Virus record (IMG/VR): IMGVR_UViG_3300037067_002612
Location: 1 to 64,000 of that record
Reading direction: 5' to 3' (one strand)
Length of the DNA: 64,000 nt
DNA from: a virus
Lineage: Duplodnaviria; Caudoviricetes
The notes beneath the pieces were generated by a model that worked only from the letters and a program-made list of their open reading frames with translations, ran no database searches and was not told where the DNA came from. Numbering within the stretch: the first letter of the stretch is position 1; the number at the start of each line of letters is the position of its first letter. Below are positions 1,046-64,000 of this stretch, one piece after another. The position numbers and the translations under genes are program-made.

Positions 1046-1093
1046 TAGTGATAATGTCGCAATAATTCAGCAGGAAGTGCAGAGGATTTTTAT

Positions 1094-1459
1094 ATGAATT
1101 TAGATTTGTCAATTAAAGCCAATGAAATACTTGACAAAGTAAATAAGGATGAGCAAAAGGTCTTCGTAGACCCAGCTACCATCATTCTTGTTATTAGTAT
1201 TTTATCTATGATTTTTCAAGGCATACGTATGTGGTTGCAGTATCGTAAAAATAAACTAGATGGACAAGAAATCCAGGTTTTATGTAGTAAACCAAGTAGG
1301 TTAGCTAATTTATTTGTACGTCGTGGTATTATCAATAAATTTGGTAGAAAAACGTATAAAGATTTAGGTGGTGAAGAATTTGTGTCCGCTATATTTGAGA
1401 CTGGAGCAAACACTTCGCCGGAAGAACTTGATAATTTATTACAAAAATATGCGTACTAA
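1094..1459 (+). CDS. hypothetical membrane protein
   Basis: ORF with one hydrophobic helix (IILVISILSMIF). Confidence 0.6.
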   Translation: MNLDLSIKANEILDKVNKDEQKVFVDPATIILVISILSMIFQGIRMWLQYRKNKLDGQEIQVLCSKPSRLANLFVRRGIINKFGRKTYKDLGGEEFVSAIFETGANTSPEELDNLLQKYAY

Positions 1460-1782
1460 GGGCCTGATATGTTTCGATAGGGCATGGGAGTTTGTGATTG
1501 CGTGTCGTGGTTGACCAAATGGCCACGAAAAAAATTGGTTATTATATATTTAAATGGCAATAAGAATGTCATGGGTTGGGCTGTACCCGGAACAGCTAAC
1601 CGCAAAGTGAACGTAGAAAACCTTCCGCGTTTTCAATTTGCATAAAGTTTAATCTTGTACTCAACAAGAGTGGAGTAATTTATAAGACAGCTTTGTTTGT
1701 TGTGCAGATTAACAATAAACTACACACGTAGACGTTACTTATTGAAATGTCACTAGACCCGGTTTCGCATCCGGCAGGTCCA
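1460..1782 (+). ncRNA. ssrA: tmRNA
   Basis: 5' GGGCCTG pairs with 3' CAGGTCC+A (G3:U70 Ala identity); 5' GATATGTTTCGA D-loop-like segment; CCGG-TTTCGCAT-CCGG T-arm; internal tag ORF 1556-1645; CCA not encoded. Confidence 0.9.
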
Positions 1783-1819
1783 CTTGATATAATATTGTTC
1801 AAATTTTTTGGGAGGTAAT

Positions 1820-3496
1820 ATGATGAAATGGTTATGCTGTGTAATTACATCAGTTTTGATGTTTGTAAATGTTAATACATATGGAAAGCCATTAACATTA
1901 AATGAAATTTCCGAGGCCGTTTGCCGTATTCGTGTTGGTGTGACTTATGGCACCGGTACTTGTGTAGGTAAGACAGCCGACAATCAACATTATTTGATTT
2001 TTACTAATGGCCATGTGGTTGGGCGTCAATCTCAGGGCACGGTTGAATTTTTCCGTAGTGGTTATAAGACTACACCACTTCCTGCTGATGTTATTTATAG
2101 TAATGTAAACAACAGAAGTGATGTGGATTTTGGTTTTATGCAAGTACATGAAAAACACTTTGGGGATTATCCTCCTCGTATTATAAAAATGATGCCACCT
2201 GACTGTAAGTTAAGTGTTGGTAATTATATTGCTGCGGTGGGTTGTCCTGATGCTCGTTGGGCTCAGGCTTGGGAAGGTCATATTACCGAACATAAAGATA
2301 GTCGTGTGTTATTTATACCTGCTCCTGTTGGTGGACAAAGCGGTAGTGGAGTGATGGTATTAGTATATAACAATAACACTAAAGAATGGGAAACAAAACT
2401 AGGTGCTATTTTAACATGGCGTATTCCAATGTTGGATGGGGCAAAGTTTTGTGGTGGTGCTATTCCAGTCACTACATTATACAGTGTGTTGAACAATACT
2501 TATACAAGTTATCGTGTACCAGTTAGTTATCGACCGGTATCGCTTGAAGTCCCAACTGCTCCATTAAATACAGTTCCAAAAACACAGGGTGTATACGCAC
2601 TTGGTAGTAATAATAAACTATATAGAGTATATTTAACTAGTGATGGTTCAAAGACTGTAATCTTAGGTAGTGATTATGGCGTTCAGATATTAACATGGGA
2701 TTATTATAATAGCCCATATTATCAAAACTCGGCTGGCGTTTGTCCTCCTGGTGGTTGTCCTCCTGGTAATGCTGCCCCAAATCCTCGTTGGCAACCTTTT
2801 GGTGGTAGGTTTCAGCCTAATCAACCTGATAATCAACAACCAGAAGTGCCACCATATACACAGCCTCAACAACCAGACGGTAATAAGCCTAATAATCCTT
2901 ATGGTGTTGTACCTCCAAATCTATGGCAAGACAATAAACCGGAGGCTGTACCGGTGCCAAGTAATAAACCAGTTGTCAAACCACCGGTTGTACAAAATCC
3001 CAACGAAGATGTGTCGTTTTTGGCAGGTCTTTTTGGTCGTACTCGTGACCGTGTAAATAGCTTTTTTGGTGGGATTATGGTAGCTGTTGGCGGTGGGTTA
3101 TTTGTTTTTGCATGGAATAAATTCATTAAAAAGAGAGTTATAACTAGGGTGGATTCTCTACAAGATTATCTTGAACAGCAGGTTAAAGCTAAATGGGGAC
3201 CAGAACTTGCTAAAGAGGCTCGTGACATCATGGAGGGCGTTGAGGATGCGTTGCTAGGCTTTGCTGATGATTTTATTGCGGATTCCCAGGCTAAGAAGCA
3301 AGTTGCTAAATCAATTATAGTTGGTAAGCCAGCCGAACGTATACGCAATGGGTCAAGTAATGTATTTAAAAATGTCACCGTTCCAGAACTTGTAGCGGCT
3401 GTTAATGAAGCTGCTAAAGAAGTAGGCGATGACAGTATTACCACCGAAATACCGGCTAAGGTAGCAGATATTGTTGGTAAAATTGCAAAGAAGTAA
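1820..3496 (+). CDS. secreted/membrane-anchored trypsin-like serine protease
   Basis: GGAGG SD; signal peptide; TNGHVV (His), DFGF (Asp), GGQSGSG (Ser); Pro/Gln/Asn-rich linker; C-terminal TM helix. Confidence 0.8.
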   Translation: MMKWLCCVITSVLMFVNVNTYGKPLTLNEISEAVCRIRVGVTYGTGTCVGKTADNQHYLIFTNGHVVGRQSQGTVEFFRSGYKTTPLPADVIYSNVNNRSDVDFGFMQVHEKHFGDYPPRIIKMMPPDCKLSVGNYIAAVGCPDARWAQAWEGHITEHKDSRVLFIPAPVGGQSGSGVMVLVYNNNTKEWETKLGAILTWRIPMLDGAKFCGGAIPVTTLYSVLNNTYTSYRVPVSYRPVSLEVPTAPLNTVPKTQGVYALGSNNKLYRVYLTSDGSKTVILGSDYGVQILTWDYYNSPYYQNSAGVCPPGGCPPGNAAPNPRWQPFGGRFQPNQPDNQQPEVPPYTQPQQPDGNKPNNPYGVVPPNLWQDNKPEAVPVPSNKPVVKPPVVQNPNEDVSFLAGLFGRTRDRVNSFFGGIMVAVGGGLFVFAWNKFIKKRVITRVDSLQDYLEQQVKAKWGPELAKEARDIMEGVEDALLGFADDFIADSQAKKQVAKSIIVGKPAERIRNGSSNVFKNVTVPELVAAVNEAAKEVGDDSITTEIPAKVADIVGKIAKK

Positions 3497-7725: not shown

Positions 7726-8534
7726 AAATCCAAACACATTATTTTAATCCACCAGTCACATCGCCGGGACACCATAACTTCGGAGATATGCTAGTACCAA
7801 TTATCTTACGTTTTTTAACTAACAACAAATATAATATTGAATATGTTATTCGTGACATCCAAGGTAAACTATTATGTATAGGAAGCGAATTAGCATCTGG
7901 TGTAGTTTTACAAGAAAACGATGTAATCTTTGGATATGGGGCGAAATTAGAAAAACCTATTGATATTCCTAAGGGTGTAGAAATACTAAGTGTAAGAGGA
8001 CCATTAACACGCGAGTTAATTAACATAGATAATGTTCCAGAAATATATGGCGACCCGGCTATATTAATGCCATTGATTTATTCAGCAGGAAGTGCAGTAT
8101 GTAAATATAGAATAGGTATAATCCCACATTATGTTGATAAACCATTGTTCAATCATTTATTATTATCAGATGACACAATTCTCATTGATATTAATCAATC
8201 TCCATATGATGTGATTCAACAAATTTTATCATGTGATATTATTCTGTCCACTAGTTTACACGGAGCTATAGTAGCAGAAGCCTATGGTAAGAAAGTTGTG
8301 TGGCTTCAAGCAAGTAATAAAATAGGTGGATTTATATTTAAGTGGCTTGATTATTTAGTTAGCACAGGAAGACCAGATAATATTCAACCCGTGATATATG
8401 ATGGCGTAGAAAACCCGAATGAATATATTAAATATGCACTCCCACCACCGTCCAATTTAAGTTTTTTACAGCAAGGTTTATTAAATACCTGGAAAGAAAA
8501 TGAGCAGTATATACTTAGCACATGTCAGGGATAA
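7722..8534 (+). CDS. polysaccharide pyruvyl transferase family protein
   Basis: NFGD, SVRGPLT, GDPA, IIPHY, SLHGAIVAEAYG, FKW.DY motifs. Confidence 0.85.
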   Translation: MKIQTHYFNPPVTSPGHHNFGDMLVPIILRFLTNNKYNIEYVIRDIQGKLLCIGSELASGVVLQENDVIFGYGAKLEKPIDIPKGVEILSVRGPLTRELINIDNVPEIYGDPAILMPLIYSAGSAVCKYRIGIIPHYVDKPLFNHLLLSDDTILIDINQSPYDVIQQILSCDIILSTSLHGAIVAEAYGKKVVWLQASNKIGGFIFKWLDYLVSTGRPDNIQPVIYDGVENPNEYIKYALPPPSNLSFLQQGLLNTWKENEQYILSTCQG

Positions 8535-9935: not shown

Positions 9936-10411
9936 GTAATTTTTCCCCAATGCTGAAATATACCTGGATAATTATCAAACATAAGTATTTCCTGTTGAAA
10001 ATCGGCAGGAGGTTGGGGGTGCCTTATTATCGGTTATTAAAACATGATTTAAGTAAGTTTTCATGGAAAGAATTACCACATTATGCTAGACAATTTTGCG
10101 GTGATAAAAGCGACCAACCGAGTTTTATGAGAGCCTGGTTGCATCATCAAAATAGTAATGACCATCATTGGGAATATTGGATTAACAGAAGTGTTTATCA
10201 TAAAGACAAAGGGGATTGTGACACTATAGATATGAGTGACGCCGCAATCCGTGAAATGATTGCAGATTGGTTGGCTGCCTCACGAGCATATAGTGGTTTT
10301 TGGCCTGCGTCACTAGATAAGTGGACATGGTATCAAGACAAGTGGAATAAAATACATTTGTCGTCGGATACTAAACAAAAAGTATTAGATATTTTAATAA
10401 CTTTATTTTAA
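9932..10411 (+). CDS. HD-domain protein (DUF5662-like)
   Basis: HK...HDLSK, AWLHH..N.HHWEYW, EMIADW motifs. Confidence 0.7.
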   Translation: MSNFSPMLKYTWIIIKHKYFLLKIGRRLGVPYYRLLKHDLSKFSWKELPHYARQFCGDKSDQPSFMRAWLHHQNSNDHHWEYWINRSVYHKDKGDCDTIDMSDAAIREMIADWLAASRAYSGFWPASLDKWTWYQDKWNKIHLSSDTKQKVLDILITLF

Positions 10412-12787: not shown

Positions 12788-14259
12788 TGAACATTGAAAA
12801 TGATATTAAACTAGACTTTGACGATGTATTAATCAAGCCTAAGCGGTCTGAAATGACAAGTCGTGCAGACGTACAACTTGAAAAGACATATAAGTTTTTA
12901 CATACATCACAAACTTGGACTGGGTTTCCAATTATAGCAGCTAATATGGATACAATTGGCACCAAAAAAATGGCCATCTCGTTGGCGGCTTATGGTGGAT
13001 TGACCGCGCTGCATAAATATCACAATAATGTAGATATCAGAGAATTGTTTACTAATGATATTTATAAAAATTGTGTTTTTTACACTATTGGGATATCAGA
13101 CGTGAATAAACTTGAGGATTTAGACTACATGCATCTGAATAATATACCGTATATGATATGTGTGGATGTGGCTAATGGATATAATCAACAGTTTATTGAA
13201 AATGTATCATATATCCGAGAAATGTATCTTGGGTCTATTATTATGGCTGGAAACGTAGCTACGCCTGAAATGACACAAGAGTTGTTAATTGGCGGTAGAG
13301 CAGATATAGTCAAGGTGGGAATCGGGCCAGGGTGTTTTATTGGTGATACATTAATCCAAACTACAGTTGGTTTAAAGAAAATTGCTGATGTGTGCATCGG
13401 TGATTCAGTCTTAACTCATAATGGAACATATCAAAAAGTAATAGGTACAAAATCTAGGCAGGAAAATAATAAATTATTAGAAATCAATGATAATATTTGC
13501 ACTACAGAACATGAGTTTTATGTTTTACATCAGCAATATTATAAACATGGTATGACATATGATGACACAGCAAAATTTGGTGAATGGATACAAGCACAAT
13601 ATTTAAACCCAGACCATTATTTGTTGATTTGTAGAATAAGTGGACGCAAGCCATTTCTATCAGGCATTGAGATATATGAACATAATTTACAATCGCCAGA
13701 AAATGTATACGATATTGAAGTCGAAAACAGTAATTCATTTTGTGTAGGGTATCATAATATTATAGTACATAATTCTGCCTGTACCACTCGCAAGGTTACT
13801 GGTGTAGGATATCCTCAGTTATCTGCTATTATGGAATGTGCTGATGTGGCTCATGGTCTAGGAGGACATATCTGTGCTGACGGAGGATGTAGAGAAGTAG
13901 GGGATATTTGCAAAGCATTTGGGGCTGGAGCGGATTTTGTAATGTTAGGTGGATTATTAGCAGGAAGTGATGAGTGTGACGGCGAATGGATATACAAAAA
14001 TGCTGGTTTAGATGACAACTATAAAGGTCAAAAAACAGGGATGAAGTTTTATGGTATGGCGTCTCAAAATGCCCTAGATAAATATGGTCAGAATAATGAC
14101 TATAGGACAAGTGAAGGACAAATGATAGAAGTCCCGTATAAAGGCCCAGTGTCTAATGTAATTCAACAAATTCAAGGTGGCTTACGTAGTGCATGTGCAT
14201 ATGTTGGAGCACGTACACTGAAAGATTTCCCCAAATGTACTACTTTTATAAGGACTTAA
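12787..14259 (+). CDS. guaC: GMP reductase, intein-containing
   Basis: KLDFDDVLIKPKRS, AANMDT, DVANG, KVGIGPG|SACTTR, ADGGC, FYGMAS, GGLRSACAYVGA. Confidence 0.9.
   Translation: MNIENDIKLDFDDVLIKPKRSEMTSRADVQLEKTYKFLHTSQTWTGFPIIAANMDTIGTKKMAISLAAYGGLTALHKYHNNVDIRELFTNDIYKNCVFYTIGISDVNKLEDLDYMHLNNIPYMICVDVANGYNQQFIENVSYIREMYLGSIIMAGNVATPEMTQELLIGGRADIVKVGIGPGCFIGDTLIQTTVGLKKIADVCIGDSVLTHNGTYQKVIGTKSRQENNKLLEINDNICTTEHEFYVLHQQYYKHGMTYDDTAKFGEWIQAQYLNPDHYLLICRISGRKPFLSGIEIYEHNLQSPENVYDIEVENSNSFCVGYHNIIVHNSACTTRKVTGVGYPQLSAIMECADVAHGLGGHICADGGCREVGDICKAFGAGADFVMLGGLLAGSDECDGEWIYKNAGLDDNYKGQKTGMKFYGMASQNALDKYGQNNDYRTSEGQMIEVPYKGPVSNVIQQIQGGLRSACAYVGARTLKDFPKCTTFIRT
13333..13773 (+). mobile_element. 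mini-intein in GMP reductase (147 aa)
   Basis: CFIGDT...CTTEHEF...VYDIEVE...IIVHN|S; no endonuclease motifs. Confidence 0.9.
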
Positions 14260-14491: not shown

Positions 14492-15256
14492 ATGATTATA
14501 TTTCTAATTCCCGTGCGTCATAATGATGGCGTCAAAGACTATAATTTATTGTGGTGGCGATTAAACAACACACTTAGAAGTATTGTCCTACAAACCGACG
14601 ATGATTGGAGAGTTGTAGTTTGTGCCAATAAAGTTTTACCAATTTTTAATGATATACCCGATGATAAAGTAATATTCATTGAACAACAACGCCCCTTTAT
14701 AGCCCACACACAATTAAAATGGGACGCACAGTATTTTCGGTCTCATGTGATTGACAAAGCAATGAGGAGACAATGCGGTGTTCTATACTCGATGAATATG
14801 AACTGGAAGCCAGAGTGGTATTTTATGGTGGATGCCGACGATTATTTAGCATTAGATTTAGTAGAAAACCTACATGCACTTCCTGCTAATAGTTTATGTG
14901 TTGGTATTACTCGCGGTGTGGTGCTCAACACTAAAAATGAGTATTATGTAACAGACAATTTTAATGAAATGTGCGGTACGTCGTTCGGGGTTAGGCCGTC
15001 ATTATTGTATGACACTATGAACCAACATGACAATACAAATACATGCGTGTTACTTGGACATCATCAACCAAAATATTTTATGAGATTATGTAAAAATACG
15101 CAAGTTTCTTGTTTAAGCAATAAAGTATACGCTGGATATTTACTGCATGAAGAAAACCACGGTAAATACTTGTATAATTTTGAAGGCGAATGGAAACCAA
15201 TAACAGAACAAATTCGGAAGCGTTTGTCTATACACTTGACATCACCGCAGAACTAG
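14492..15256 (+). CDS. GT-A fold glycosyltransferase-like protein
   Basis: FLIP, TLRSIVLQT, MVDADD, CGTS motifs. Confidence 0.65.
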   Translation: MIIFLIPVRHNDGVKDYNLLWWRLNNTLRSIVLQTDDDWRVVVCANKVLPIFNDIPDDKVIFIEQQRPFIAHTQLKWDAQYFRSHVIDKAMRRQCGVLYSMNMNWKPEWYFMVDADDYLALDLVENLHALPANSLCVGITRGVVLNTKNEYYVTDNFNEMCGTSFGVRPSLLYDTMNQHDNTNTCVLLGHHQPKYFMRLCKNTQVSCLSNKVYAGYLLHEENHGKYLYNFEGEWKPITEQIRKRLSIHLTSPQN

Positions 15257-16889: not shown

Positions 16890-17807
16890 ATGAAATACAT
16901 ATGTGCACAACCACCTATTTTATATTATGAGTGGCAATTACATATTTTTCTTAAGTCTTTAATTACACATGGGATTGATGCAAAAGACATATGTATTATT
17001 ACGTTAAAAGACCATCCTAAAGCTTCGCCAACTTTTCAGACTTTAGGTGAGATATACGGTGTACAAATATATTATTATCCAGACACCAGGAAATCCATTG
17101 TTTATATACCAAGTATACGTCATCATTTATTAATTCAACATTGGCAAAGTAATCCAGAGTTAATAAACGAAGTAGTTTTTTACTGTGATTCAGATATACT
17201 ATTACGGCAACCACTTAATTTACATGACAAACTTAACGATGACATCTGGTATGTGTCTGACGCCAAATCATATATAGGGCATGACTATATTAAACAACAT
17301 GGTGTCAATGTACTGGATAAAATGTGCGCTATTGTAGGTATTAAAAAATCGCTGGTCAAAGAACAACAAAACAACTCTGGTGGTGCTCAGTATTTATTAA
17401 AACATGTGACTACGGAATTTTGGCAGGAAGTGTATGATGATAGTATTAACTTATTTACCGAACTAAGTAAGTATAACCAAACTCAGGAAAAATTATCCAA
17501 AAAACCACAGTTGCAAATTTGGTGTGCAGACATGTGGGCAATACTATGGAATGCGTGGAAAAGAGGAATAACTACCAAGATTACTAGTGATTTTGATTTT
17601 TCATGGGGAAGTAGTACACAAGCAGAGTGGGATAATAAGCCGATTTATCATAACGCCGGTGTTATCAAAAGTGATTGTGATGGTCAATTTTGTAAAGCAA
17701 ACTATATAGATATGCTACCTCCTGCTGATTTACAATTACATACTGAACTGGCAAATAAGAATTATTATCAAGTAGTTCAAGCGGTATTATATGGAGATAA
17801 TATATAA
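16890..17807 (+). CDS. glycosyltransferase-like protein (GT-A)
   Basis: YYEWQ, FYCDSD DxD, GGAQY, WCADMWA, IYHNAG. Confidence 0.55.
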   Translation: MKYICAQPPILYYEWQLHIFLKSLITHGIDAKDICIITLKDHPKASPTFQTLGEIYGVQIYYYPDTRKSIVYIPSIRHHLLIQHWQSNPELINEVVFYCDSDILLRQPLNLHDKLNDDIWYVSDAKSYIGHDYIKQHGVNVLDKMCAIVGIKKSLVKEQQNNSGGAQYLLKHVTTEFWQEVYDDSINLFTELSKYNQTQEKLSKKPQLQIWCADMWAILWNAWKRGITTKITSDFDFSWGSSTQAEWDNKPIYHNAGVIKSDCDGQFCKANYIDMLPPADLQLHTELANKNYYQVVQAVLYGDNI

Positions 17808-19811: not shown

Positions 19812-19812
19812 A

Positions 19813-20503: not shown

Positions 20504-21439
20504 ATGAAAATTCTAATCAATAGTCAACACTTAAATGGCACGGGCGGCATAGACCGTGTATCGCGTAGACTCATCTCCGAATTACTCAATAGAGGGCATG
20601 TGGTGGATACAACTTCCCAAAATCCTCCCTATGATATACACCTACTTCCTGCTAATGGTGTGGTTGGAGCTAATGTCAATATGTTACCTATAGATAATAC
20701 ACCGGTGGTATCTGTAGTACATGACATTATTCCATATATTACCAAAACAGGCAATGAAAATTATATAGAGAAGTTAAAAAAAACATTTGAAATTTCATCC
20801 CATATTATTACTGTGTCTAAATATTCATCTGAAAGTATCATTCGTGAGTTCGCACCAAGTATACCGGTTAGTGTAGTTTATTCTGGTGTTTTATTGCCAG
20901 TTGTTCAATACAAAGAAATATATCCAGAGCCATATTTATTATCTGTGGGGTACGGTCCACATAAAAATTTAGATTTGGTTTTAGATATTATAACTAAAAT
21001 TGATAATCTTATTCTTATAATTGTTGGAAAACAATTTTATGTTGATAATGTACAACGAGATAGAGTAAAAAAATTAGTCGATATTGGTAAAATTATTGAG
21101 TATGGTATTGTCAACGAAGAGACTTTAATTAGCTTGTATAAAAACGCTTTTGCTTTGTTGTGTCTTAGTGAACATGAGGGTTTTGGGTTGCCGGTGATTG
21201 AGGCAATGGCGTGTGGTTGTCCAGTTATTTCTAGCTGTCAAGGAGGATTAAAGGAAGCGTGTGGGAATTCAGCGTTTTATACACAAACAAATCAAGAGGT
21301 AATAAATGCTATTCAAACTTTAACACATTCAAACGATAGACGACGATTTGTTAAAAGTGGGTTAAAATACGTTAGTATGTTTAATTGGGACAATACAATT
21401 CAGGAATATGAGCAAATATTGGAGAAAGTATGTCGGTAG
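20504..21439 (+). CDS. glycosyltransferase family 4
   Basis: GG..R, VHDIIP, HKN, EGFGLPVIEAMACGCPV. Confidence 0.9.
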   Translation: MKILINSQHLNGTGGIDRVSRRLISELLNRGHVVDTTSQNPPYDIHLLPANGVVGANVNMLPIDNTPVVSVVHDIIPYITKTGNENYIEKLKKTFEISSHIITVSKYSSESIIREFAPSIPVSVVYSGVLLPVVQYKEIYPEPYLLSVGYGPHKNLDLVLDIITKIDNLILIIVGKQFYVDNVQRDRVKKLVDIGKIIEYGIVNEETLISLYKNAFALLCLSEHEGFGLPVIEAMACGCPVISSCQGGLKEACGNSAFYTQTNQEVINAIQTLTHSNDRRRFVKSGLKYVSMFNWDNTIQEYEQILEKVCR

Positions 21440-24462: not shown

Positions 24463-24947
24463 TAGAATATGCCAAAATAGATAATCAAACATTCAATATA
24501 TATTACGACACATATAAAGAATACATACAAAAAATAAGCAGGAAGTATGGTGTATTATCAAAAGACGAGCAAATATCATGTGGGATGACCGCACTGTGGA
24601 GATGTCTGGCCAACACACAAGCTTCGCATAATGAGAAAATTCGTAATTTTAAATCAGTATTATATACATATGTCCGGTGGGAATGCCTTAGTTGTATACA
24701 TAAGCTCCCCACTACATTACTGCCACTTCCTGCTGAAATTGTATTAGATGATAACTTTGATGTTAATGTGTTTATCGAAGATTACTTTACTGATTTACCC
24801 AACCGTAATAAACGTATTATGGTATGTAAGTTTGTAGATGGATATACTATAAATGAAATTGCTGTCCGCGAAGGGTTAAGCAAACACAATGTATGTTGTA
24901 TTATACAACAGTCATTGAAAAATATTAGTAAAAAGATATTAAAATAG
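24450..24947 (+). CDS. sigma70/ECF-like factor
   Basis: G..ALW, F...LY..VRW region 2; LP...GYTINEIA..EGLS HTH. Confidence 0.7.
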   Translation: MSTIIEYAKIDNQTFNIYYDTYKEYIQKISRKYGVLSKDEQISCGMTALWRCLANTQASHNEKIRNFKSVLYTYVRWECLSCIHKLPTTLLPLPAEIVLDDNFDVNVFIEDYFTDLPNRNKRIMVCKFVDGYTINEIAVREGLSKHNVCCIIQQSLKNISKKILK

Positions 24948-37138: not shown

Positions 37139-37567
37139 ATGAAAGACCAAACTTCTACACATACATTCCCTTCTAAATATGGTGGTGATTGGATTACCCC
37201 AGCCCAATACCTTACTGAATATCTATGTGAGATTATTGCACGTCAACAAAAGGAAGAATTACCAGATAAATTTTGGCAGGAAGTGCTATGGTGTAAAATT
37301 TACAAAACACAAATAGTTTTAGTTAATCGTTTACTGAAAACGTATGACGTATCTGTTATTTTACAGGCGTTGAAACATCCACAGTGCAGGCGGTTACAGT
37401 CTTTTGGGGCAAAATGGTTATTAGAGCCAATATTGAAGAAGTTGCAAAAACAGTTTAATGCCAAAACCGTATCAGATTCGAGCATACGAGAAAAAACGCC
37501 GATTGACCAAGCCCCAAGACCAGCTACCAGTAATAAAAAACAATCGTTATTTTCACAATTAAAGTAA
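37139..37567 (+). CDS. conserved phage hypothetical protein
   Basis: SKYG..IT.AQY..E..C...LP.KFW. Confidence 0.65.
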   Translation: MKDQTSTHTFPSKYGGDWITPAQYLTEYLCEIIARQQKEELPDKFWQEVLWCKIYKTQIVLVNRLLKTYDVSVILQALKHPQCRRLQSFGAKWLLEPILKKLQKQFNAKTVSDSSIREKTPIDQAPRPATSNKKQSLFSQLK

Positions 37568-46185: not shown

Positions 46186-46426
46186 TACCACCACAACAAA
46201 AAAGGTTCAAATTAATATCAACCGTAAGTTGATGTCTCACGATATAGTCCAACAACTAAGAGATACAATCAACGCAGAAGGAATGTTAGCAGGAAGTGCA
46301 GTATTAAATCTGTTGGATGAATACGACAGACTTAGGTATTTATCTGAGGGTTTAGCAACAGCTTATATGAAACAAAAACCACATGATATTAAGAAAATAA
46401 TGGAGATTTTGCAATTAATTCTTTAA
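46178..46426 (+). CDS. hypothetical protein
   Basis: ORF in operon. Confidence 0.5.
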   Translation: MSNTTTTKKVQININRKLMSHDIVQQLRDTINAEGMLAGSAVLNLLDEYDRLRYLSEGLATAYMKQKPHDIKKIMEILQLIL

Positions 46427-47251: not shown

Positions 47252-48630
47252 ATGACGATGAAGACGTACTTTCCGCTTCATTGTCATTCTTAGGTGGGTC
47301 TCATTACTCACTTTTGGATGGCCTAAGTAAACCTAGTCAAATTGCCAAGCGTTGCATAACAGCCCAACTACATGGGTCAGCCCTCACTGACCACGGCAGT
47401 ATATCAGGGGCTATTAGTTTTATGCAAGCAATGTCAGATAAAAACCTGCAATTCATCATGGGATGTGAGTTGTATGTTTGTCCACAAGACCCCAGTATTA
47501 AAGATAAGGATAGAACCCTACATCATTTGGTGGTGTTGGCAAAAAATCTACAAGGTTGGAAAAGCTTAGTCAACATAGTCAGTGAATCTAATAAACCAGA
47601 AAACTTTTACTATAAGCCTCGACTAAACTTAGATACACTTGCACAATTAAACAACGGTAATCTAATAGCTTTCAGCGGACACTTAGGCTCACATTTATCT
47701 CATTGTATATTGCAAGACATTAACGGAGCCACTGGTTGTGCGACCGTAGATGAAGTCAAAAAGTTTGCCAACCCAAATTGGGTTAAAGATACAACTGAGA
47801 TGGCCAAACGCCTTCAAGACATATTTGGAAAAGACCACTTTTTCTTGGAAGTTCAGCTAATAGATACATTACTTCCTGCTAATAAATTGCTTGCGATGGG
47901 CTTACGTTATATCTCCAAGCAAACTGGCATACCGTTGATTGCTACTCCAGACGCCCACTATGCTGAGAAAGAAGATGCGGTTGACCAGAGAGTATTATTA
48001 TGTAATGCGTTGCACACAACATTTCGGGAAGTAGAACATAAAATGACCCTGGGCGAAGACGTTGGTTTGGGGGCATTTTTTAAATCAAGAAATTATCATA
48101 TTCCGTCATATGAAGAAATGCTCAACTGTGGAAATACAGAAGAAGAGTTAGAAAATACCATTAAAATCGCCTCAATGTGTGAGTCATATAGTATTACAGA
48201 CAAACCTCAATTACCACGATTTATTTGTCCAAACAATATTGCATCGGAAGATTATCTCAACGAGTTGGTAGATATAGGATGGAAAGAAAGATGGCCTAAA
48301 ATTCAAAAAATAATTACTAATACATCTCACACAGAAGCAGAATATAAAGAAAGACTTTCATATGAACTGGAAGTTTTAAAGGAAGCTGGACTATCAGATT
48401 ATTTTCTCATCGTTAATGATATAATTAACTGGGCACGGACTCAAGGACAATTATGTGGTCCTGGGCGAGGTTCAAGTTCTGGCTCATTAGTATTATATTT
48501 ATTGGGCGTCACGCAAATCGACCCTATAGAATATGACTTATTATTTTCTAGGTTTTACAATAATTCTCGAAATATTAGTTCACATGTGTCATTCCCAGAA
48601 TATTCATTTCTAAAATATATCAGTGTGTAG
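47252..48630 (+). CDS. dnaE: DNA polymerase III alpha, part 1 (PHP + palm N-part), with an 11-nt interruption at 47291-47301
   Basis: GGAGG SD; YFPLHCHS + HYSLLDG, LTDHG, GCE.Y, HL.VLAKN, YKPR, DAHY, GPGRGS..GSLV.Y.LG.T.IDP, LLFSRF. Confidence 0.9.
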
Positions 48631-48639: not shown

Positions 48640-49533
48640 ATGGACAATATTGCAAAATTGCAAAGCCTAAGCTATAATATAAACTTAGATAAGCTTGAAC
48701 AATTAAAAAATAATAAATATTTTCAGTCTGAGTTAGACATTATATTCTCTTCTAAGCAAGTTACATCATATTACATATATATTATCAAGAGTGTAGAATT
48801 AGACAAAACAAATTCACAAAATAGTTATATTATGTGGGTGTTTGATAAGGTTGATGAAATAAACTTAAATCAACCAGCAAATATTGTACCAAGTAGAGTT
48901 AGTTTACCAGATGTTGATATGGATTTTGAAATTAGACAACGAGGCAGTATAATTGAATACATTCGTAATAAATATGGTAGTGAATACGTTGGACAAATGT
49001 TGACATTTACACGATTACAGGGGCGAGGAGCCTTAAAAGACGTTCTACGTGCTCATGGTGTGGTTACACCGAAAGAAATGGATATAATTACATCTTGCAT
49101 ACCTGGCGAGTCTGAAATATCTGACCAACTACAAGAAATGAAGGATGCTGATAAAAATGACGGTGGCGATGGAGAAGCCAGTATTATTCAATGGGCCATA
49201 GAACATCACGCTAAAGACCTAAAACCCTGGGTTTATTTAGATAATGACGGTAACTTACAGGGGCCTCTGAGTAAATACTTTGAACAAGCAATTCGCATCG
49301 AAGGTACTAAAAAATCTCAAAGTAAACATCCAGCCGGTGTCATAATTTCTAAAGAGCCACTTGCCAGTATATGCCCGATGGTGTATGATAAAACGACAGA
49401 GGAAATGATATGCGGGATGGAAATGTCGGACATGGAGGCTATGGGGTTGGTCAAGATGGATTGTCTTGGGGTTTCTGTCTTAGACAAAGTTCATAATGTT
49501 ATACGATTATTAGCAGGAAGTGCAATGGAGTAG
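48640..49533 (+). CDS. dnaE: DNA polymerase III alpha, part 2 (catalytic palm/thumb)
   Basis: RVSLPDVDMDF catalytic aspartates, HPAGVIIS, GLVKMDCLG. Confidence 0.9.
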   Translation: MDNIAKLQSLSYNINLDKLEQLKNNKYFQSELDIIFSSKQVTSYYIYIIKSVELDKTNSQNSYIMWVFDKVDEINLNQPANIVPSRVSLPDVDMDFEIRQRGSIIEYIRNKYGSEYVGQMLTFTRLQGRGALKDVLRAHGVVTPKEMDIITSCIPGESEISDQLQEMKDADKNDGGDGEASIIQWAIEHHAKDLKPWVYLDNDGNLQGPLSKYFEQAIRIEGTKKSQSKHPAGVIISKEPLASICPMVYDKTTEEMICGMEMSDMEAMGLVKMDCLGVSVLDKVHNVIRLLAGSAME

Positions 49534-55895: not shown

Positions 55896-57564
55896 AGCCA
55901 GTTTCCTTAGCACCGGATACGGCGTTTATGGAAATGAGATTCTCCATAGATTACACGATACTGGCAAATATGAAATAGCCGAAATGGGCGTTTATTCTTC
56001 GTCTAATGACCCACTTGCTAATAATTTGCCGTGGTTGTACTATGGATGTTTACCAGACACGCCAGAGCAAAACGTAGAATACAACTCACAGCTAGCAAAC
56101 CAGTGGGGTTTATGGAGATTTGAAGAAGTATGTTTAGACTTTAAGCCAGATATTGTAATAGATACGAGAGATTGGTGGGCCGGTGAATTTGTATCACGGT
56201 CTCCGTTCAGGAGATTCTTTCATTGGAGTATTATGCCGACCGTGGACAGTGCCCCTCAAATGGAACAATGGTTAGCAACATATTTAGATGCAGACTCACT
56301 GTGTACTTATACAGAGTTTGGACGAGACACCCTTAATACCGAGACTAACGGAAAAATAAAATTCCGTGGAATTCCAAGCCCTAGTGCAAATTACAACATA
56401 TTTAAACCAGTTGGAGACAAACAAAAGCATAAAGAGTTGTTTGGCTTAGATGGGGATGTCTGTATTGTCGGTACAATAATGAGAAACCAAAAACGCAAGT
56501 TATATCCTGATTTAATACTTGCATTTAAGAAGTTTTTGGAACAGTCTCATAGAGACATCAGTGATAAAGTATACTTATATTTACATACGTCGTATCCAGA
56601 TATAGGATGGGATATCCCAAGGCTTATTCGAGAGTCAGGTATAGGACATAGAATTCTTTGTACATATATTTGTAGTAATTGTGGACATGTATGCTGTTCT
56701 GTTTTTAATGACGCAACCCAAGTATGTAGGCAATGCCATAGACCTACTGCTAAATTACCATCTGTATCACATGGAGTTAGTACGAAGGACTTAGCTGCTA
56801 TTATTAATTTGTTTGATGTATATGTACAATACGCTATCGCGGAGGGCCTTGGAATGCCTGCTATTGAGGCAGCTTCATGTGGTGTCCCAGTTATGGCTGT
56901 AGACTATTCTGGTATGGCGTCTGTTCTTAAAAACATTCAAGGAATTCCTATTAAAGTACAACGATTTTTCCGTGAGTCTGAGACACATGCTTATAGGGCT
57001 CTGCCGGATAATCAAGATTTAGCTGATAAATTATCCAAATTTTTTACTATATCTATTGACAATCAACGTGGTTTAGGTCGTCAAACAGCCATAGCGTGTC
57101 GCCAAGCATACTCATGGGAGAAAGCAGTAAATATCTGGGAAAACATTATAGATGGAGTTGTTATAAAACCGTTAGAACAAACGTGGGATAGTCCACCTAG
57201 AGTTATCACACCAAATTTAAATATCCCTAATAATTTGACCCAAGATGAATTTGTGAGATGGTGTGTAGTAAATGTATGGGGCGAGCCCAGTCAACTAAAC
57301 TCATATGTAGTTATGCGTATGGTAAGAGACTTACATTATGGTGAGGCCATTTCAGGTTTTGGAGGTCCATATTACTCTGAGGATAGTTTAATCATTGAAC
57401 AGCCTAAATACAGAACATTTGATAAGCAGGAAGTGCTAGGGGCATTAAAAAAAATGGGTGATACACGCAATTATTGGGAGGAAAGGCGGGCTGGTCTAGT
57501 ACAGGTGGACACGCCTATTTATATTCAACGAGCACATAATAGGGTAAAACATCATGTCGTATAA
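55861..57564 (+). CDS. glycosyltransferase family 4 with Cys-rich insert
   Basis: TGYG, RNQ.RK, C..C...C..C insert, EGLGMPAIEAASCGVP. Confidence 0.85.
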   Translation: MTRKPKILWMNEASFLSTGYGVYGNEILHRLHDTGKYEIAEMGVYSSSNDPLANNLPWLYYGCLPDTPEQNVEYNSQLANQWGLWRFEEVCLDFKPDIVIDTRDWWAGEFVSRSPFRRFFHWSIMPTVDSAPQMEQWLATYLDADSLCTYTEFGRDTLNTETNGKIKFRGIPSPSANYNIFKPVGDKQKHKELFGLDGDVCIVGTIMRNQKRKLYPDLILAFKKFLEQSHRDISDKVYLYLHTSYPDIGWDIPRLIRESGIGHRILCTYICSNCGHVCCSVFNDATQVCRQCHRPTAKLPSVSHGVSTKDLAAIINLFDVYVQYAIAEGLGMPAIEAASCGVPVMAVDYSGMASVLKNIQGIPIKVQRFFRESETHAYRALPDNQDLADKLSKFFTISIDNQRGLGRQTAIACRQAYSWEKAVNIWENIIDGVVIKPLEQTWDSPPRVITPNLNIPNNLTQDEFVRWCVVNVWGEPSQLNSYVVMRMVRDLHYGEAISGFGGPYYSEDSLIIEQPKYRTFDKQEVLGALKKMGDTRNYWEERRAGLVQVDTPIYIQRAHNRVKHHVV

Positions 57565-58717
57565 AGTATTATACATAGGTAATTGGAAAGACGGCGGCGG
57601 GTGGAGCACCGCTGCCCAAAATGCCATTTTAGCAATGGACAGTGTTGGTATTGATGTTGTGCCACGGCACGTTACTTCGAGTGATACATCTCATCGTCAA
57701 CAAGAAATCCCAGAGCGATTATTGGAGCTAGAACAAAAAAGGGCCACTGGATGTGATATTTGTATACAACATTTATTGCCTCATATGATGGAGTATGACG
57801 GTCATTTTAAGTTAAATATTGGTAGATTCGACTATGAGACATCCAACTTTAATCATACATACTGGGCGAGACACCTAAACACGATGGACCATATTTTTGT
57901 GTCAAACCCTTATATGCAGGAAGTATGTAAAAATAGCAATGTCACCACGCCGACATCTGTAATTCCACATTGCTTTGATATTTCAAAATATTCTCAGTAT
58001 TATAAAGATTATGAAATACCAGCCTTAAAAGACCAATTTGTATTTTACACAATTGGAGAAGTAATTAGACGAAAGAATCTGGCGGGCTTAATTAAGGCAT
58101 TTCACCTAGAATTCCGACCATATGAGCCTGTTACTTTACTAATTAAGGGTCATATGATGGGATTATCTCCTGCTGAAACTAACGAAAAAATTAAAAAACT
58201 TATTGAAGAAATTAAAAGAGGGCTTCGACTATATCCTAATATTACAGACTACCATAATGAAGTAATTATAACACAGTGGATGAAAGACGAAGAAATATTA
58301 CGCTTACATAAAACATGCGATTGTTTTGTATCCGCGTCTTATGGAGAAGCATGGAATATTCCTGGTTTTGAAGCAATGGCAATGGGTAAGCCTGTTATCC
58401 TAAACAATGAAGGTGGTCCTAAGTATTACATTGAAAATCTAAAATCTGGGTTATTATTGAGAAATGTTACCGAAGAAGTATTTATGCCACCAAGTGAAAT
58501 CCCGGTTGACGGCATTTGGACAGGGGATGAATCATGGCATAAACCGTCAGTGCAACACTTAAGACAATTAATGAGGAAGATATACCAAGACGAAGAAATC
58601 CGCTGTTTACTAGGCAACCACGGGATTGACAGAGCGTATGACTTTTCGTATAATATAGTAGGTAATCTTATAAACAACACTTTACAAAAACTATTGGATA
58701 TTACTAATGAGCGGTAA
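57554..58717 (+). CDS. glycosyltransferase family 4
   Basis: RRKN, DCFVSAS.GEAWNIP.FEAMAMGKPVI. Confidence 0.85.
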   Translation: MSYKVLYIGNWKDGGGWSTAAQNAILAMDSVGIDVVPRHVTSSDTSHRQQEIPERLLELEQKRATGCDICIQHLLPHMMEYDGHFKLNIGRFDYETSNFNHTYWARHLNTMDHIFVSNPYMQEVCKNSNVTTPTSVIPHCFDISKYSQYYKDYEIPALKDQFVFYTIGEVIRRKNLAGLIKAFHLEFRPYEPVTLLIKGHMMGLSPAETNEKIKKLIEEIKRGLRLYPNITDYHNEVIITQWMKDEEILRLHKTCDCFVSASYGEAWNIPGFEAMAMGKPVILNNEGGPKYYIENLKSGLLLRNVTEEVFMPPSEIPVDGIWTGDESWHKPSVQHLRQLMRKIYQDEEIRCLLGNHGIDRAYDFSYNIVGNLINNTLQKLLDITNER

Positions 58718-59258: not shown

Positions 59259-60268
59259 TGCCAACATCAGTACAATGTTTAATTAAACGAAGTGTCAATG
59301 AACAACCACTGAATATATTGACATTCCCTACACACGAACGATATGAGACCTCCCTAGCAGCAACGGGACATAATTTTTATTCCATTCGTATAGCCGGTAT
59401 GAAAGATTGGAATACGAACTACGCCGCTGTTCCGTCAAATTATACGTTATTGCCGGTCAGCGACAGCTCTCTTATATTGCCCGTGTGGATAGTACCAGAT
59501 TTAATTTTAAGTCAACATAAAGCTGGACAATTTCAAATAGCACAGAATATAGCAAGACAATTAAAAATCCCTCACATAAGTCTAGAACACAGACTCCCGA
59601 CAAATAAGCAGGAAGCAGCAAGTGTACAGGGCTTATTGGGCGACACCAACGTGTTTGTTTCAGAATACCAGGCAGAACAATGGCAAGTAGATAATTGTGA
59701 GATTAACCATACTGGTATAGATACTGATTTATTTATTCCACCCATCACCCCACAAAGACAACCTTGGGCTTTATCGGTAGTCAACGACTGGATAAAAAGA
59801 GATTTTCACTGTGGGTTTTACTTATGGAAAGAAACGGTAGGATTTAAAGATAATAAATATAAACATATACCATGTGAAGTATTAGGAGACACGCCCGGAT
59901 TATCTAAGCCTGCACCCGATATTGCAACACTCGTGCAATATTATCAAAAAGCAGGTGTATTTCTTAATACTACTCTTAATTCATCATTGCCGACAGTTAT
60001 TTTAGAAGCCATGTCATGTGGTTGCCCGGTAGTAAGTACAGGAACCTGTTTAATACCTAAAATCATTATTGAACACGGGGTTAATGGACTAATTGGAAAT
60101 GATGCCACTGAACTTAGACAACATACGCACTTCCTGCTTAATAATCCTGACGAAGCACATCGTATTGGAATGGCGGGTCGCAAAACCATAGAAGACAAAT
60201 TTTCACAAAAACAGTTTGTACAACGATGGAATGAAATTTTTACTAAAACAATGGATAATTATAAATGA
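59258..60268 (+). CDS. glycosyltransferase family 4
   Basis: THERYE, GIDT..F, FLNT....P..ILEAMSCGCPVVST. Confidence 0.85.
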   Translation: MPTSVQCLIKRSVNEQPLNILTFPTHERYETSLAATGHNFYSIRIAGMKDWNTNYAAVPSNYTLLPVSDSSLILPVWIVPDLILSQHKAGQFQIAQNIARQLKIPHISLEHRLPTNKQEAASVQGLLGDTNVFVSEYQAEQWQVDNCEINHTGIDTDLFIPPITPQRQPWALSVVNDWIKRDFHCGFYLWKETVGFKDNKYKHIPCEVLGDTPGLSKPAPDIATLVQYYQKAGVFLNTTLNSSLPTVILEAMSCGCPVVSTGTCLIPKIIIEHGVNGLIGNDATELRQHTHFLLNNPDEAHRIGMAGRKTIEDKFSQKQFVQRWNEIFTKTMDNYK

Positions 60269-61380: not shown

Positions 61381-61830
61381 ATGAAAGTACATTTACATAT
61401 TAATCCAGAAGAAGCCATGTCTGGTTATACAAATATTTGCTTGGGTTATAATCACTGGAAAGAAGAAGTAGATGTTCGTGTCAGTGATGCAGAAGCCAAA
61501 GAGCTAATAGCAAATAATATATTAGAATACGTTAAGTTATCTGACGTGTTAAATACACTGGAATACCTAATCAGTAAAATCCGTCACGGCGGCAGGTTAA
61601 TTATTTCTGGTACTGATATAGATAGTGTCGCTCAAGATTATTGCCAACATAAATTGACCATTGAAGAACTTAATATTTTGATACATGGAGACCAACGAGA
61701 TATATCAAATGTCAAGTTAGTCACATTATCTATGAATGACTTAATTAGTTTTCTAACAAAATCTGGATTTAACATTTTGCGTAAAACATACCATGAATAT
61801 ATCTATATAATTGAGGCACAGCGACAATGA
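61381..61830 (+). CDS. methyltransferase-like protein (truncated fold)
   Basis: GY.NI, ILEY, K.R.GG.L.I...D. Confidence 0.5.
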   Translation: MKVHLHINPEEAMSGYTNICLGYNHWKEEVDVRVSDAEAKELIANNILEYVKLSDVLNTLEYLISKIRHGGRLIISGTDIDSVAQDYCQHKLTIEELNILIHGDQRDISNVKLVTLSMNDLISFLTKSGFNILRKTYHEYIYIIEAQRQ

Positions 61831-62567
61831 GCACTATTGTAAAAACAACATGTCCAACCTGTATTTTTTGGAATAAGTATGACACGACAGACAAGTGGTG
61901 TTATATGGGAGTTTGGGGAAAAGTATCACAACAAAAATACAGAAATGTTTCTATTGACAGTAATAACTGTTTACTTAATTTTACATGTCCGTTTTACAGA
62001 CCGTCACAGTGGCGTGAAACCGACCAATGTAGTATTTCTATTTGTGTAGACAGAGCCAAACGAGAAACACACTTACAATATGATGTTGTGATTTGGTTTG
62101 ATAATAGGATGACTATAGAAGACCTACAAACAACACTTACATCCATACAAGATATAACCCCCATACCAAATAAAGTATTTATTGTTAATAATAACAGTAT
62201 AATTAAGCCAAGCAATCTTATTACGTTAATGGCTAATTTTAAATTACCGTGGCAAATAGAAACTTTTACGCAAAAAATGCGAATATCGCGTGGACTTAAT
62301 CTGATTACTCAAAAAACTAATAGCATATTTGTATTTTATTGCTTGGCAGGATATTCACCATCTAAAGCTATGTTTAACAAACTAGATAAATATTTATATG
62401 ATGACCTACAAAGACTGCTGATGCTATTACCGACAGATAGTATTAATAATATGATGGTTATGAGACATTTATGGAAATTACTTGGACCAACACATGTACT
62501 TGAAAAAGCCAGAACTCTCCAGAGGGAAAAACCATGTCTGATTCAGTCAGCACAAGAGTGGGTATAA
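61827..62567 (+). CDS. Cys-rich, degenerate GT2-like protein
   Basis: C..C.F N-terminus; L..TL.SI......V.IV.N. Confidence 0.45.
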   Translation: MSTIVKTTCPTCIFWNKYDTTDKWCYMGVWGKVSQQKYRNVSIDSNNCLLNFTCPFYRPSQWRETDQCSISICVDRAKRETHLQYDVVIWFDNRMTIEDLQTTLTSIQDITPIPNKVFIVNNNSIIKPSNLITLMANFKLPWQIETFTQKMRISRGLNLITQKTNSIFVFYCLAGYSPSKAMFNKLDKYLYDDLQRLLMLLPTDSINNMMVMRHLWKLLGPTHVLEKARTLQREKPCLIQSAQEWV

Positions 62568-63322
62568 TTATTCCATGTTATAATCATGGTAAGTATATTC
62601 AACAAGCATTAGATAGTATAATTTTGCAAGACTACCCCCACGATTTAATCCGTGTGTGTATTGTCGATGATTGTTCTACTGATGATTCTGTACAAGAAAT
62701 ACTAGCTTTAATTAACCCGTTAGCAGACCCAATATTTAATACTGAATATATGGTTTGGTCTACTGGAGAATATTATGATATACAAGTTATTTTAGCTAAA
62801 CATAAAGTAAATCGTAAACAAGCAGCAGCACGAAATCTAGCGATTAATCTATTATTAGATAATGTGGATACATTTTGTCAATTAGACGCAGATGACCTTT
62901 ATCTTCCAGGCAAATTATCAAAGTCTGTCGCTTTATATGAAAAATATTCTGAGTGGACTGGACTCGTATATAGTGATGCTATAATACATGACCTACGTGA
63001 CAACACATATGTTAGAGAATTTCGTGAGCCATATTCTTATATAAGACTTCAACAAGAAAATATTATATCCAACGCTCCATTGATTGCAAAAAAAGCACTA
63101 TTAGATGTGGGTCTATATGATGAAGAATTACCACCATGTGAAGATTGGGATTTGTGGTTAAGAATTGCAGAACAGTTTGTAATCTTTCATATACCAGAGG
63201 CATTACAACAATATACTGTCACTGGTCAAAATTGTACATTTACAGTCCCGGTGACACATTGGCAACAACAATGGTCGCGTATACAACAAAAAATAAAGGA
63301 ACGGCATGTCATTAGCACATAG
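62534..63322 (+). CDS. glycosyltransferase family 2
   Basis: IIPCYN, VDDCSTD, ARN, LDADD, EDWDLWLR. Confidence 0.9.
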   Translation: MSDSVSTRVGIIIPCYNHGKYIQQALDSIILQDYPHDLIRVCIVDDCSTDDSVQEILALINPLADPIFNTEYMVWSTGEYYDIQVILAKHKVNRKQAAARNLAINLLLDNVDTFCQLDADDLYLPGKLSKSVALYEKYSEWTGLVYSDAIIHDLRDNTYVREFREPYSYIRLQQENIISNAPLIAKKALLDVGLYDEELPPCEDWDLWLRIAEQFVIFHIPEALQQYTVTGQNCTFTVPVTHWQQQWSRIQQKIKERHVIST

Positions 63323-64000
63323 GCATATTGCACCAGTAAAATCATCAGTTATACCTGATAGTATAAGCTTTATTATTACCGGGGCTGGAATAAGCCACAA
63401 AATGAAAACGCGTGGACCAATTGGGTTACTGCCAATGCACCGTGGTATATTCCTTTTCGAGCACCAAGTGAAAACTATTCTCAGTGTATACCCACATGCC
63501 GATATTATATATGTGTCGGGATTTGAACACAGTAAATTACGAGAAGCCATATATGGACAATACCCCGTAAGATTAATATGTAATGAAAATTATCAAGAAA
63601 CCAACACTGCTTATAGTATAAGTTTGGCATTAGACGCAATATATGCAAGCATAGTTTTTGTTATACATGGAGATATTCTTTTTAATCATACTGCAATTCA
63701 GTGTTTAGATAATAAATCCAGTATATTATCAGCAGGAAGTGCATGTGTGATAGATGAAAATAAGCCTGGTATTAAAGAGTTGAATGGTAAGGCTGTATCA
63801 CTGGCCCACGACTTAAATCCTCGATGGTCACAGGTTTTGAGAGTGCAGGATAAAGAGTTGACATTACTGAGGAATATAGTATTTAATTATAAGTTATCAC
63901 AGAGATGGTTTACTTATGAGGTAATTAATAAGATAATTAGCCGGAAGGGGAGTGTAGCCGTCTGTGAAAATCAAAATGCTAAGGTCATAGAGATTAATAA
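63306..64000 (+). CDS. sugar/choline nucleotidyltransferase-like protein (partial, runs off window)
   Basis: II.GAG...MK..GP..LL, VSGF, NENYQETN..YS, HGDILF; open to the window end. Confidence 0.7.
   Translation, partial: MSLAHRHIAPVKSSVIPDSISFIITGAGISHKMKTRGPIGLLPMHRGIFLFEHQVKTILSVYPHADIIYVSGFEHSKLREAIYGQYPVRLICNENYQETNTAYSISLALDAIYASIVFVIHGDILFNHTAIQCLDNKSSILSAGSACVIDENKPGIKELNGKAVSLAHDLNPRWSQVLRVQDKELTLLRNIVFNYKLSQRWFTYEVINKIISRKGSVAVCENQNAKVIEIN

Follow-up and report, generated by a model that had tools for sequence, protein, structure and literature searches.

A polar DNA word on both strands of a 162-kb tailed-phage genome, possibly marking programmed priming sites

The DNA described here is a 64,000-nt stretch (the window) that forms the first 64 kb of IMG/VR record IMGVR_UViG_3300037067_002612, a tailed-phage (Caudoviricetes) genome referred to as G000, and our subject is a 9-nt word, GCAGGAAGT, that is repeated throughout it. 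The whole record comprises 162,164 bp at 36.8% G+C. Because the two ends of the record overlap by 137 bp (positions 1–137 and 162029–162164, 99.3% identity), the assembly closes into a circle; it contains three runs of 10 N, at 71616, 100683 and 160287. G000 encodes RecA, DnaB, a Toprim primase adjoining DnaB and a RecB/Cas4-type nuclease, together with a split, intein-laden DNA polymerase III α subunit, ribonucleotide reductase, many glycosyltransferases, RNA ligase and polynucleotide kinase-phosphatase, and a transfer-messenger RNA (tmRNA). PrimPol, ResIII and UvrD helicases, N6/N4 methyltransferases and HNH (PF01844) were looked for in G000 and none was found. The sites of the word in the window are collected in Table 1, followed by other features.

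In the window, GCAGGAAGT occurs 22 times without mismatch (12 on the + strand and 10 on the − strand), whereas dinucleotide shuffles average 0.25 copies and never exceed 2. An earlier note on this DNA had reported at least 21 copies where about 0.2 would be expected by chance. All 21 copies are present, but the copy at 24538 (+) had been overlooked; the one-mismatch copies that it reported at 10002, 17718 (−), 27101, 54335 and 59605 are real, and all have the TNR flank described below. The word is also genome-wide, as had been proposed, with 53 copies across the full 162 kb (26+/27−) where 0.68 are expected. In an unbiased k-mer count, GCAGGAAGT and its extensions were the top over-represented words of G000 at every k from 8 to 12, and the longer GCAGGAAGTGCA was found 20 times where 0.01 copies are expected. 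A family-level pattern, TNRGCAGGRRR, has 77 sites in G000, 54 of which end in AAG, with TNRGCAGGAAGT as the preferred form, whereas base-permuted control patterns gave 0–7 matches in G000 and 0–3 in its relatives. The density amounts to about one site per 2–3 kb, both strands taken together.

Alignment of the 53 copies showed that the 9-mer is part of a longer signal of approximately 26 nt and 25 bits, which can be written WWWW-T-N-R-GCAGGAAGT-R-C-A-K-G (W, A or T; N, any base; R, purine; K, G or T), followed by a C-poor stretch that extends to about +10. The information spans positions −7 to +10, and the signal is asymmetric. Positions −7 to −4 are A/T-rich and G-poor, T occupies −3 in 51/53 copies, any base is found at −2, and −1 is a purine in 52/53. 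The ninth position of the word itself is always T. On the 3' side there is a purine at +1 in 51/53 copies, C at +2 and A at +3 in 29 copies each, and then K and G. The TNR flank and the G(C)(A) continuation that had been described for the window thus hold for the whole genome. A hairpin signal was rejected: apart from an effect of G-richness, the folding of 50-nt stretches that surround the sites is no better than that of the background.

Genes contain 45 of the 53 copies, in sense and antisense orientation about equally, and the other 8 are intergenic. The intragenic copies spell AGS, QEV or LPA, and seldom other peptides, in three frames and two orientations; the window has LPA 9 times, AGS 6, QEV 4 and HFL once, exactly as previously counted, to which are added RK at 24538 and the intergenic copy at 1070. 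Two codon-aware null models were used, both of which keep the 8 intergenic copies unchanged. Shuffling synonymous codons, so that every protein is preserved, yielded 11.1 ± 1.6 copies, and shuffling codon order yielded 8.6, against the 53 observed. The enrichment thus persists in the codon-preserving shuffle that the earlier note had proposed as a check, and codon or peptide bias was rejected as its cause. An artefact of the latter kind is exemplified by AAGAGCTTG in two relatives of G000 (G002 and G004, see below), where the word tracks gene strand and reflects peptide bias. In G000, synonymous choice alone would permit GCAGGAAGT at 84 places, and it is present at 45 of them. Since alignments with orthologues from five relatives are collinear and gap-free across the sites, the word was made by point substitution, and an origin by insertion or from a mini-element was rejected. 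At several sites the residues differ from those of the orthologues, some of them conserved in the relatives (e.g., QQEV in place of QTAI or QYSI). The three frames, the two orientations, the survival in shuffles that preserve the proteins and the gap-free alignments bear out the earlier proposal that selection acts on DNA and not on protein.

The same distribution argues, as had been stated before, against an ordinary promoter, ribosome-binding site or mRNA signal. A less ordinary promoter, serving a phage RNA polymerase that has escaped recognition or a host polymerase that has been redirected, and giving convergent transcription, appears most improbable. The layout does recall that of T7-type promoters: positions −16 to −13 are AT-rich, an invariant block precedes the purine at +1, and the first bases are poor in C. 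In addition, −10-like hexamers are slightly enriched downstream (15, compared with 9.5 ± 2.8). However, these hexamers have no fixed spacing, and with their weak enrichment this led us to reject a classical σ70 promoter; most copies are intragenic; half are antisense within a 69-kb block in which every gene is on the + strand; and no T7-type RNA polymerase (PF00940) was found in G000, in a search to which the control genomes were equally silent.

The sites are also ordered along the genome. Their spacing, for which a check of regularity had been suggested, is more even than random in G000 (coefficient of variation 0.73, P = 0.008), and the largest gap is 8.3 kb rather than the expected 13.6 kb (P = 0.005). 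The inteins contain no exact copy, as the earlier note had observed, but this is not significant, since only about 1.6 copies would be expected in these ≈5 kb. The description of the word as orientation-independent was correct in that both strands are used equally; the order of the orientations, however, is strongly non-random. Orientations alternate, with 36 runs compared with 27.5 ± 3.6 expected (P = 0.012), and 12 of the 15 gaps below 1.3 kb between exact copies are +/− (convergent), compared with 2 that are −/+. For the 77 family-level sites there are 28 short gaps, divided into 21 +/−, 5 +/+, 2 −/+ and no −/− (P < 1e-5 by permutation of orientations). The convergent pairing is firm for G000, which has 25 such pairs with members 99–1,597 bp apart and pair centers about 6.6 kb from one another. 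No relation was found in G000 between the pairs and gene starts or long-range changes in composition. This memory of orientation over up to 1.6 kb suggests that whatever reads the word tracks along DNA or synthesizes it, rather than acting by simple looping.

Table 1. Sites of the word and other features in the window. Exact sites contain GCAGGAAGT; family-level sites match TNRGCAGGRRR. Distances are between the members of a convergent pair.
Feature	Position	Strand	Remarks
Exact site TCA-GCAGGAAGT-GCA	1067..1081	+	Intergenic; left of convergent pair with 2074-2088
Exact site	2074..2088	−	Right member, pair with 1067-1081 (1.0 kb)
Exact site	8082..8096	+	Reads AGS
Family-level site TCGGCAGGAGG	10002..10012	+	One mismatch to the 9-mer
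Family-level site TAGGCAGGAAA	13455..13465	+	
Exact site	13957..13971	+	Left member, pair with 14875-14889 (0.9 kb)
Exact site	14875..14889	−	Right member, pair with 13957-13971
Exact site	17420..17434	+	Left member, pair with 17718-17728 (0.3 kb)
Family-level site TCAGCAGGAGG	17718..17728	−	Right member, pair with 17420-17434
Exact site	20641..20655	−	Orthologous place in G001 scored, at first mapping, as a complete family-level site
Exact site	24535..24549	+	Overlooked earlier; left member, pair with 24722-24736 (0.19 kb)
Exact site	24722..24736	−	Right member, pair with 24535-24549
Family-level site TAAGCAGGAAG(C)	27101..27111	+	
Exact site	31731..31745	−	Reads LPA
Exact site	33524..33538	−	
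Exact site	37273..37287	+	Reads QEV
Family-level site TTAGCAGGAAA	37734..37744	+	Dialect of the relative G001
Exact site	39906..39920	−	Orthologous place in L197 scored, at first mapping, as a complete family-level site (TTAGCAGGGAA)
Exact site	42902..42916	+	Left member, pair with 43998-44012 (1.1 kb)
Exact site	43998..44012	−	Right member, pair with 42902-42916
Exact site	46286..46300	+	Left member, pair with 47868-47882 (1.6 kb)
Exact site	47868..47882	−	Right member, pair with 46286-46300
Exact site	49510..49524	+	12 nt upstream of the DnaE part 2 stop
Family-level site TCGGCAGGAAA	54335..54345	+	
Exact site	57423..57437	+	Left member, pair with 58166-58176 (0.74 kb)
Exact 9-mer	57913..57927	+	T instead of purine at −1
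Family-level site TCAGCAGGAGA	58166..58176	−	Right member, pair with 57423-57437
Family-level site TAAGCAGGAAG(C)	59605..59615	+	Left member, pair with 60126-60140 (0.5 kb)
Exact site	60126..60140	−	Right member, pair with 59605-59615
Exact site	63729..63743	+	Reads AGS
tmRNA	1460-1785	+	Rfam RF00023, 74 bits; not called by ARAGORN
tRNA-Ile	6660-6735	+	Anticodon TAT
Methyltransf_24 domain	17808-18332		In the sugar-modification cluster; PHROG match 'DNA methyltransferase', not regarded as a DNA methylase
Sugar-modification set	18299-21439 and 55825-63322	+	Unusually many glycosyltransferases (several GT4, one GT2); also pyruvyl transferase, Methyltransf_24 protein and alanine dehydrogenase-like gene
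tRNA-repair pair	30886-33210	+	T4-type RNA ligase 1 close to polynucleotide kinase-phosphatase; also in L197, not in G002-G005

GenBank phages included no close relative of G000. Relatives were found through the major capsid protein and DnaB, and five large ones, whose proteins are on average 38–46% identical to those of G000, were taken whole. In all five, exact GCAGGAAGT is at background. The family-level pattern, however, is enriched in the nearest relatives only, each of which has its own 3' half, or dialect, attached to a shared core, TNRGCAGG. G001 contains 15 sites in 125 kb, with TNAGCAGGAAAG as the preferred form; G006 contains 11 in 41 kb, with mixed R-rich endings and no control hits; L197 contains 9 in 20.7 kb (preferred form TNWGCAGGGAAGC), L326 contains 10 in 20.5 kb (preferred form TRAGCAGGGAAGGT) and L332 contains 8 in 18 kb, in mixed forms. 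L197 and L326 have the dialect TRAGCAGGGAAG in common. In G002–G005, including the complete G003, the pattern is at background. The motif-bearing set ranges from 37 to 51% in G+C, and the convergent bias recurs in G006 (4:1); the pooled relatives give 6:3. The over-representation is statistically unassailable, and it is replicated as dialects in the relatives.

Orthologous positions were mapped through protein alignments. In motif-bearing relatives the full family-level motif is present at 5 of the 43 mappable sites, with 10–11 of 11 bases identical within the site compared with 55–68% identity in the 60 flanking bases, while in motif-less relatives none of 48 mapped sites carries it at the orthologous place. 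In G000, none of the five conserved sites is of the AAGT form, and the AAGT sites therefore look new to the G000 lineage. Conservation of motif positions, which had been put forward as a check, is seen at these five sites. Judging from these alignments, most site positions appear to turn over between relatives while the density is kept.

Several other repeated words came to light in the comparison. Other top words of the relatives (GGTTGGGCA, CCACGACTG and others) are protein or tandem repeats and were rejected as analogues. A 15-mer scan of other viral contigs gave nothing but single chance matches and (Ala-Gly-Ser)n repeat genes in which the word is spelled by coincidence; GCAGGAAGTGCAGG arises in tandem in such genes of the unrelated IMG/VR contigs L005, L033 and L050, and is a source of false positives in motif searches. 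G003 (L147-L155, 173 kb) has about 36 copies of TTTGGTGTATAATA(nn)GTAG, mostly directly upstream of a ribosome-binding site and start codon, and these resemble a promoter of the extended −10 kind that lacks a −35 box; G000, unlike G003, has no equally dominant promoter word. The contig L329 (ENA k141_1034626) carries a word of its own, TGGCAATG, seven times on both strands (4+/3−), possibly representing a switched specificity.

A functionless array, spread by mutational or repair bias such as mismatch correction that turns near-matches into matches, would account for the 53 perfect copies compared with only 15 TNR-flanked one-mismatch copies, for the presence of the word wherever the protein tolerates it, and for the fast turnover of positions between relatives. 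We nevertheless consider it very unlikely. Drive alone would not be expected to produce the even spacing, the alternation or the convergent pairs, some sites are conserved at orthologous places in spite of diverged flanks, and G000 has no N6/N4 DNA methyltransferase that could be found.

The word might instead be directed at the host, either as a Chi-like regulator of the host helicase-nuclease that processes breaks, such as RecBCD or AddAB, or as a host-wide "self" word, an explanation that we regard as quite unlikely. The DNA uptake sequences (DUS) of the Neisseriaceae and the uptake signal sequences (USS) of the Pasteurellaceae resemble the array in their formal properties, with equal use of both strands, a core of 9–12 nt with flanks, tolerant reading frames, dialects and even spacing; they are, however, properties of bacterial chromosomes, driven by uptake, and are not known for convergent pairing on the kilobase scale. 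Furthermore, relatives that differ in G+C from 37 to 51% have the core in common, and this range points to hosts that are not the same. A host with a hyper-abundant word was not found in the species genomes and the two phylum samples searched: a 17-mer scan of 185,579 species genomes gave single matches only among the matches listed, and at most 3 matches per genome to the 15/16-nt pattern were found in a small sample of 151 Pseudomonadota and 201 Bacillota, compared with 25 matches (our own count from the positions) in the 162 kb of G000. As for Chi, alternating orientations would protect both ends of a break, and phages can enrich it: in the lambdoid phages LLS and MD8, Chi outnumbers every other genomic word and is written within genes (PMC12315714). 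Chi words, however, measure 5–8 nt. In these phages Chi is an octamer that is strongly biased to one orientation (20:3 or 32:0), clusters near one end and accompanies a lack of phage recombination genes (PMC12315714), whereas the signal in G000 is longer (≈25 bits), unbiased (26:27) and evenly spread, in a genome that has RecA and a RecB/Cas4-type nuclease. Length, orientation bias and the phage's own recombination genes accordingly all speak against the Chi-like function listed in the earlier note. Should the word mirror a host word after all, the host could be named from it, and a new signal for self-recognition would have come to light.

The parS- or matS-like organizing site suggested in the same list does not fit either, since those sites are palindromic and the 26-nt signal is asymmetric. 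A plain binding site, neither cut nor primed, might still serve in genome organization, in loading or blocking of a translocase, in packaging or in shielding from host defence. The asymmetric footprint of about 26 nt, the even coverage and the alternating orientation are consistent with such a site, the dialects suggest co-evolution with a reader encoded by the phage, and several genes specific to the motif-bearing subclade encode small proteins with no assigned function. We consider this reading unlikely. No candidate binder was identified, and the preference for +/− over −/+ at distances of up to 1.6 kb is unexplained unless a tracking motor is added.

A candidate reader of another kind is encoded outside the window. 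About 37 G000 genes have homologues in motif-bearing relatives only, and one of them, at 139511–140086 of G000 (L121:15511-16086:+), encodes a protein of 191 amino acids, here called the mini-primase, that matches PHROG "DNA primase" families. Its AlphaFold2 model (predicted local distance difference test score, pLDDT, 86) has as its best structural neighbors the DnaG RNA-polymerase domains of M. tuberculosis, Aquifex and E. coli, the T7 gp4 primase fragment and T4 gp61, and the Toprim residues E98, D102, D143, D145 and D169 are invariant in 17 homologues. There is no zinc-binding domain, and no longer, fused forms were found. Approximately 20 homologues among 5.8 billion proteins make this a narrow family; when the mini-primase profile was compared with the sequences of solved structures, only spurious matches came back. 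The model indicates that the mini-primase is a stand-alone, zinc-finger-less catalytic domain of the DnaG/T7 primase type, with a putative priming activity. The gene is present in G001 and absent from G002–G005, the complete G003 included. Three further contigs encode it, and two of the three carry the motif at 0.44–0.49 sites per kb.

This extra primase, specific to the clade, points to priming, a function outside those that the earlier note had listed. Tentatively, we read the word as a strand-polar cis signal for a phage-encoded enzyme, possibly marking dedicated start sites for primer synthesis; priming is favored by the extra primase, by equal strands and even spacing that suit the priming of both templates, by opposite-strand pairs that offer one start each way, and by the invariant G-T-purine within a conserved block of about 12 nt. 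The recognition triplets of the T7 gp4 and T4 gp61 primases (5'-GTC and 5'-GTT/GCT, respectively), both structural neighbors of the mini-primase, likewise consist of an invariant G-T layout and a further base, and the primers made by DnaG-type enzymes are about 12 nt long, like the conserved block. The mini-primase, alone or with a partner, would recognize the word on a single-stranded template, start synthesis at the invariant G-T and purine, and copy the conserved 12 nt as primer. Each pair, with one site per strand 0.1–1.6 kb apart, would supply a start in each direction and so form a small unit of bidirectional initiation or restart, and the array would map out priming on both strands. Depending on which of the strands serves as template, a pair would fire inward or outward. 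In its full form, in which the zinc-finger-less mini-primase starts synthesis only at these ≈50–80 sites of 12–15 nt, in opposite-strand pairs, with dialects that drift along with the enzyme, the proposal is rather doubtful. There is nonetheless a substantial chance that the array represents a new mechanism, programmed priming.

A number of observations weigh against priming by this enzyme. The link between the mini-primase and the motif is circumstantial: it is based on five genomes or contigs, and it is confounded by phylogeny because about 37 other genes share the same pattern of presence and absence. L329, which bears the mini-primase gene, has just 2 sites in 18.5 kb. The neighbors of the gene in G000 encode a CCA-adding enzyme, a Metallophos phosphoesterase and an Rnl2-like ligase, a setting that resembles RNA repair and not replication, and a canonical pair of DnaB and Toprim primase is already encoded elsewhere in the genome. 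Convergent bias is absent from L326 (3:3, our own count from the positions), so that, in spite of the 4:1 ratio in G006, pairing is only suggestive for the clade as a whole. The mini-primase would have to read at least 12 nt without a zinc-binding domain. Known DnaG-type primases read triplets only (PMC8567376).

Alternatively, the word might mark places where a single strand is nicked, in virion DNA or during replication. Such site-specific nicks would fall on both strands, those of a pair being staggered by 0.1–1.6 kb. Toprim-fold enzymes include nickases, and the clade-specific Toprim protein could for that reason cut rather than prime. The nick motifs of phages, known from tf, Rembedalsseter, T5 and phiKMV, are the closest published phage precedent: their core is likewise asymmetric and 9 nt long, with roughly one copy every 3 kb; they lie mostly within genes irrespective of frame and gene strand, are conserved within a clade and share the T|purine junction. 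The motif of tf, TACT/RTGMC, has 14 copies in a 46-kb genome, all on one strand (PMC3517423), and WACTRTGAC of Rembedalsseter has 13 copies in 45 kb, 88% of them intragenic and again on one strand; it is conserved in 61 phages that have little similarity in nucleotide sequence, and its function is not known (PMC11780129). All described nick motifs occupy one strand and cluster toward one genome end, however, while the G000 sites are split 26+/27−, even and paired; the 3' half of the G000 word varies between relatives, unlike that of nick motifs, and the word is known from sequence alone. The fold match of the mini-primase, moreover, spans the entire RNA-polymerase domain of primases and not Toprim alone. 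Nicking, by this enzyme or a different one, strikes us as rather unlikely, but like plain binding it is a serious rival of priming.

If the sites serve for priming or nicking, the phage hard-wires the starts of DNA synthesis or processing across its whole chromosome, its coding sequence is measurably bent to serve the site map, and a DnaG-type catalytic domain can gain specificity for a long sequence, which would also be of interest as a tool. The question can be put to the test with one protein and a 26-nt oligonucleotide.

The literature searched contained no report of the word in a phage, or of a comparable two-strand paired array, in agreement with the earlier note, which had recognized no described element. 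For programmed priming, a precedent is found in RSF1010, whose ssiA and ssiB are long priming signals of defined sequence, one per complementary strand and inverted relative to each other, used by the primase RepB' that the element itself encodes (PMC8567376). RSF1010, however, has one pair per replicon, with sites of 40 nt each that form a hairpin, and RepB' is of the archaeo-eukaryotic type (PMC8567376), whereas G000 has 50–80 sites, no hairpin and a candidate enzyme with a DnaG/T7-type fold; the lack of a hairpin counts against the parallel. The recognition triplets of T7 and T4 occur by chance and are not written into the genomes, in contrast to the at least 12 positions specified in G000, and the zinc finger that reads the triplet in primases of the T7/T4 type is missing from the mini-primase. 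Most likely, the array belongs with the genome-wide polar DNA words of phages, among which no described signal acts in this way. Such asymmetric words, the nick motifs of T5 and tf among them, have been on record for 50 years and are not known to have a function. Compared with these, the array in G000 is denser, two-stranded and paired, has dialects in its relatives and comes with a concrete candidate enzyme.

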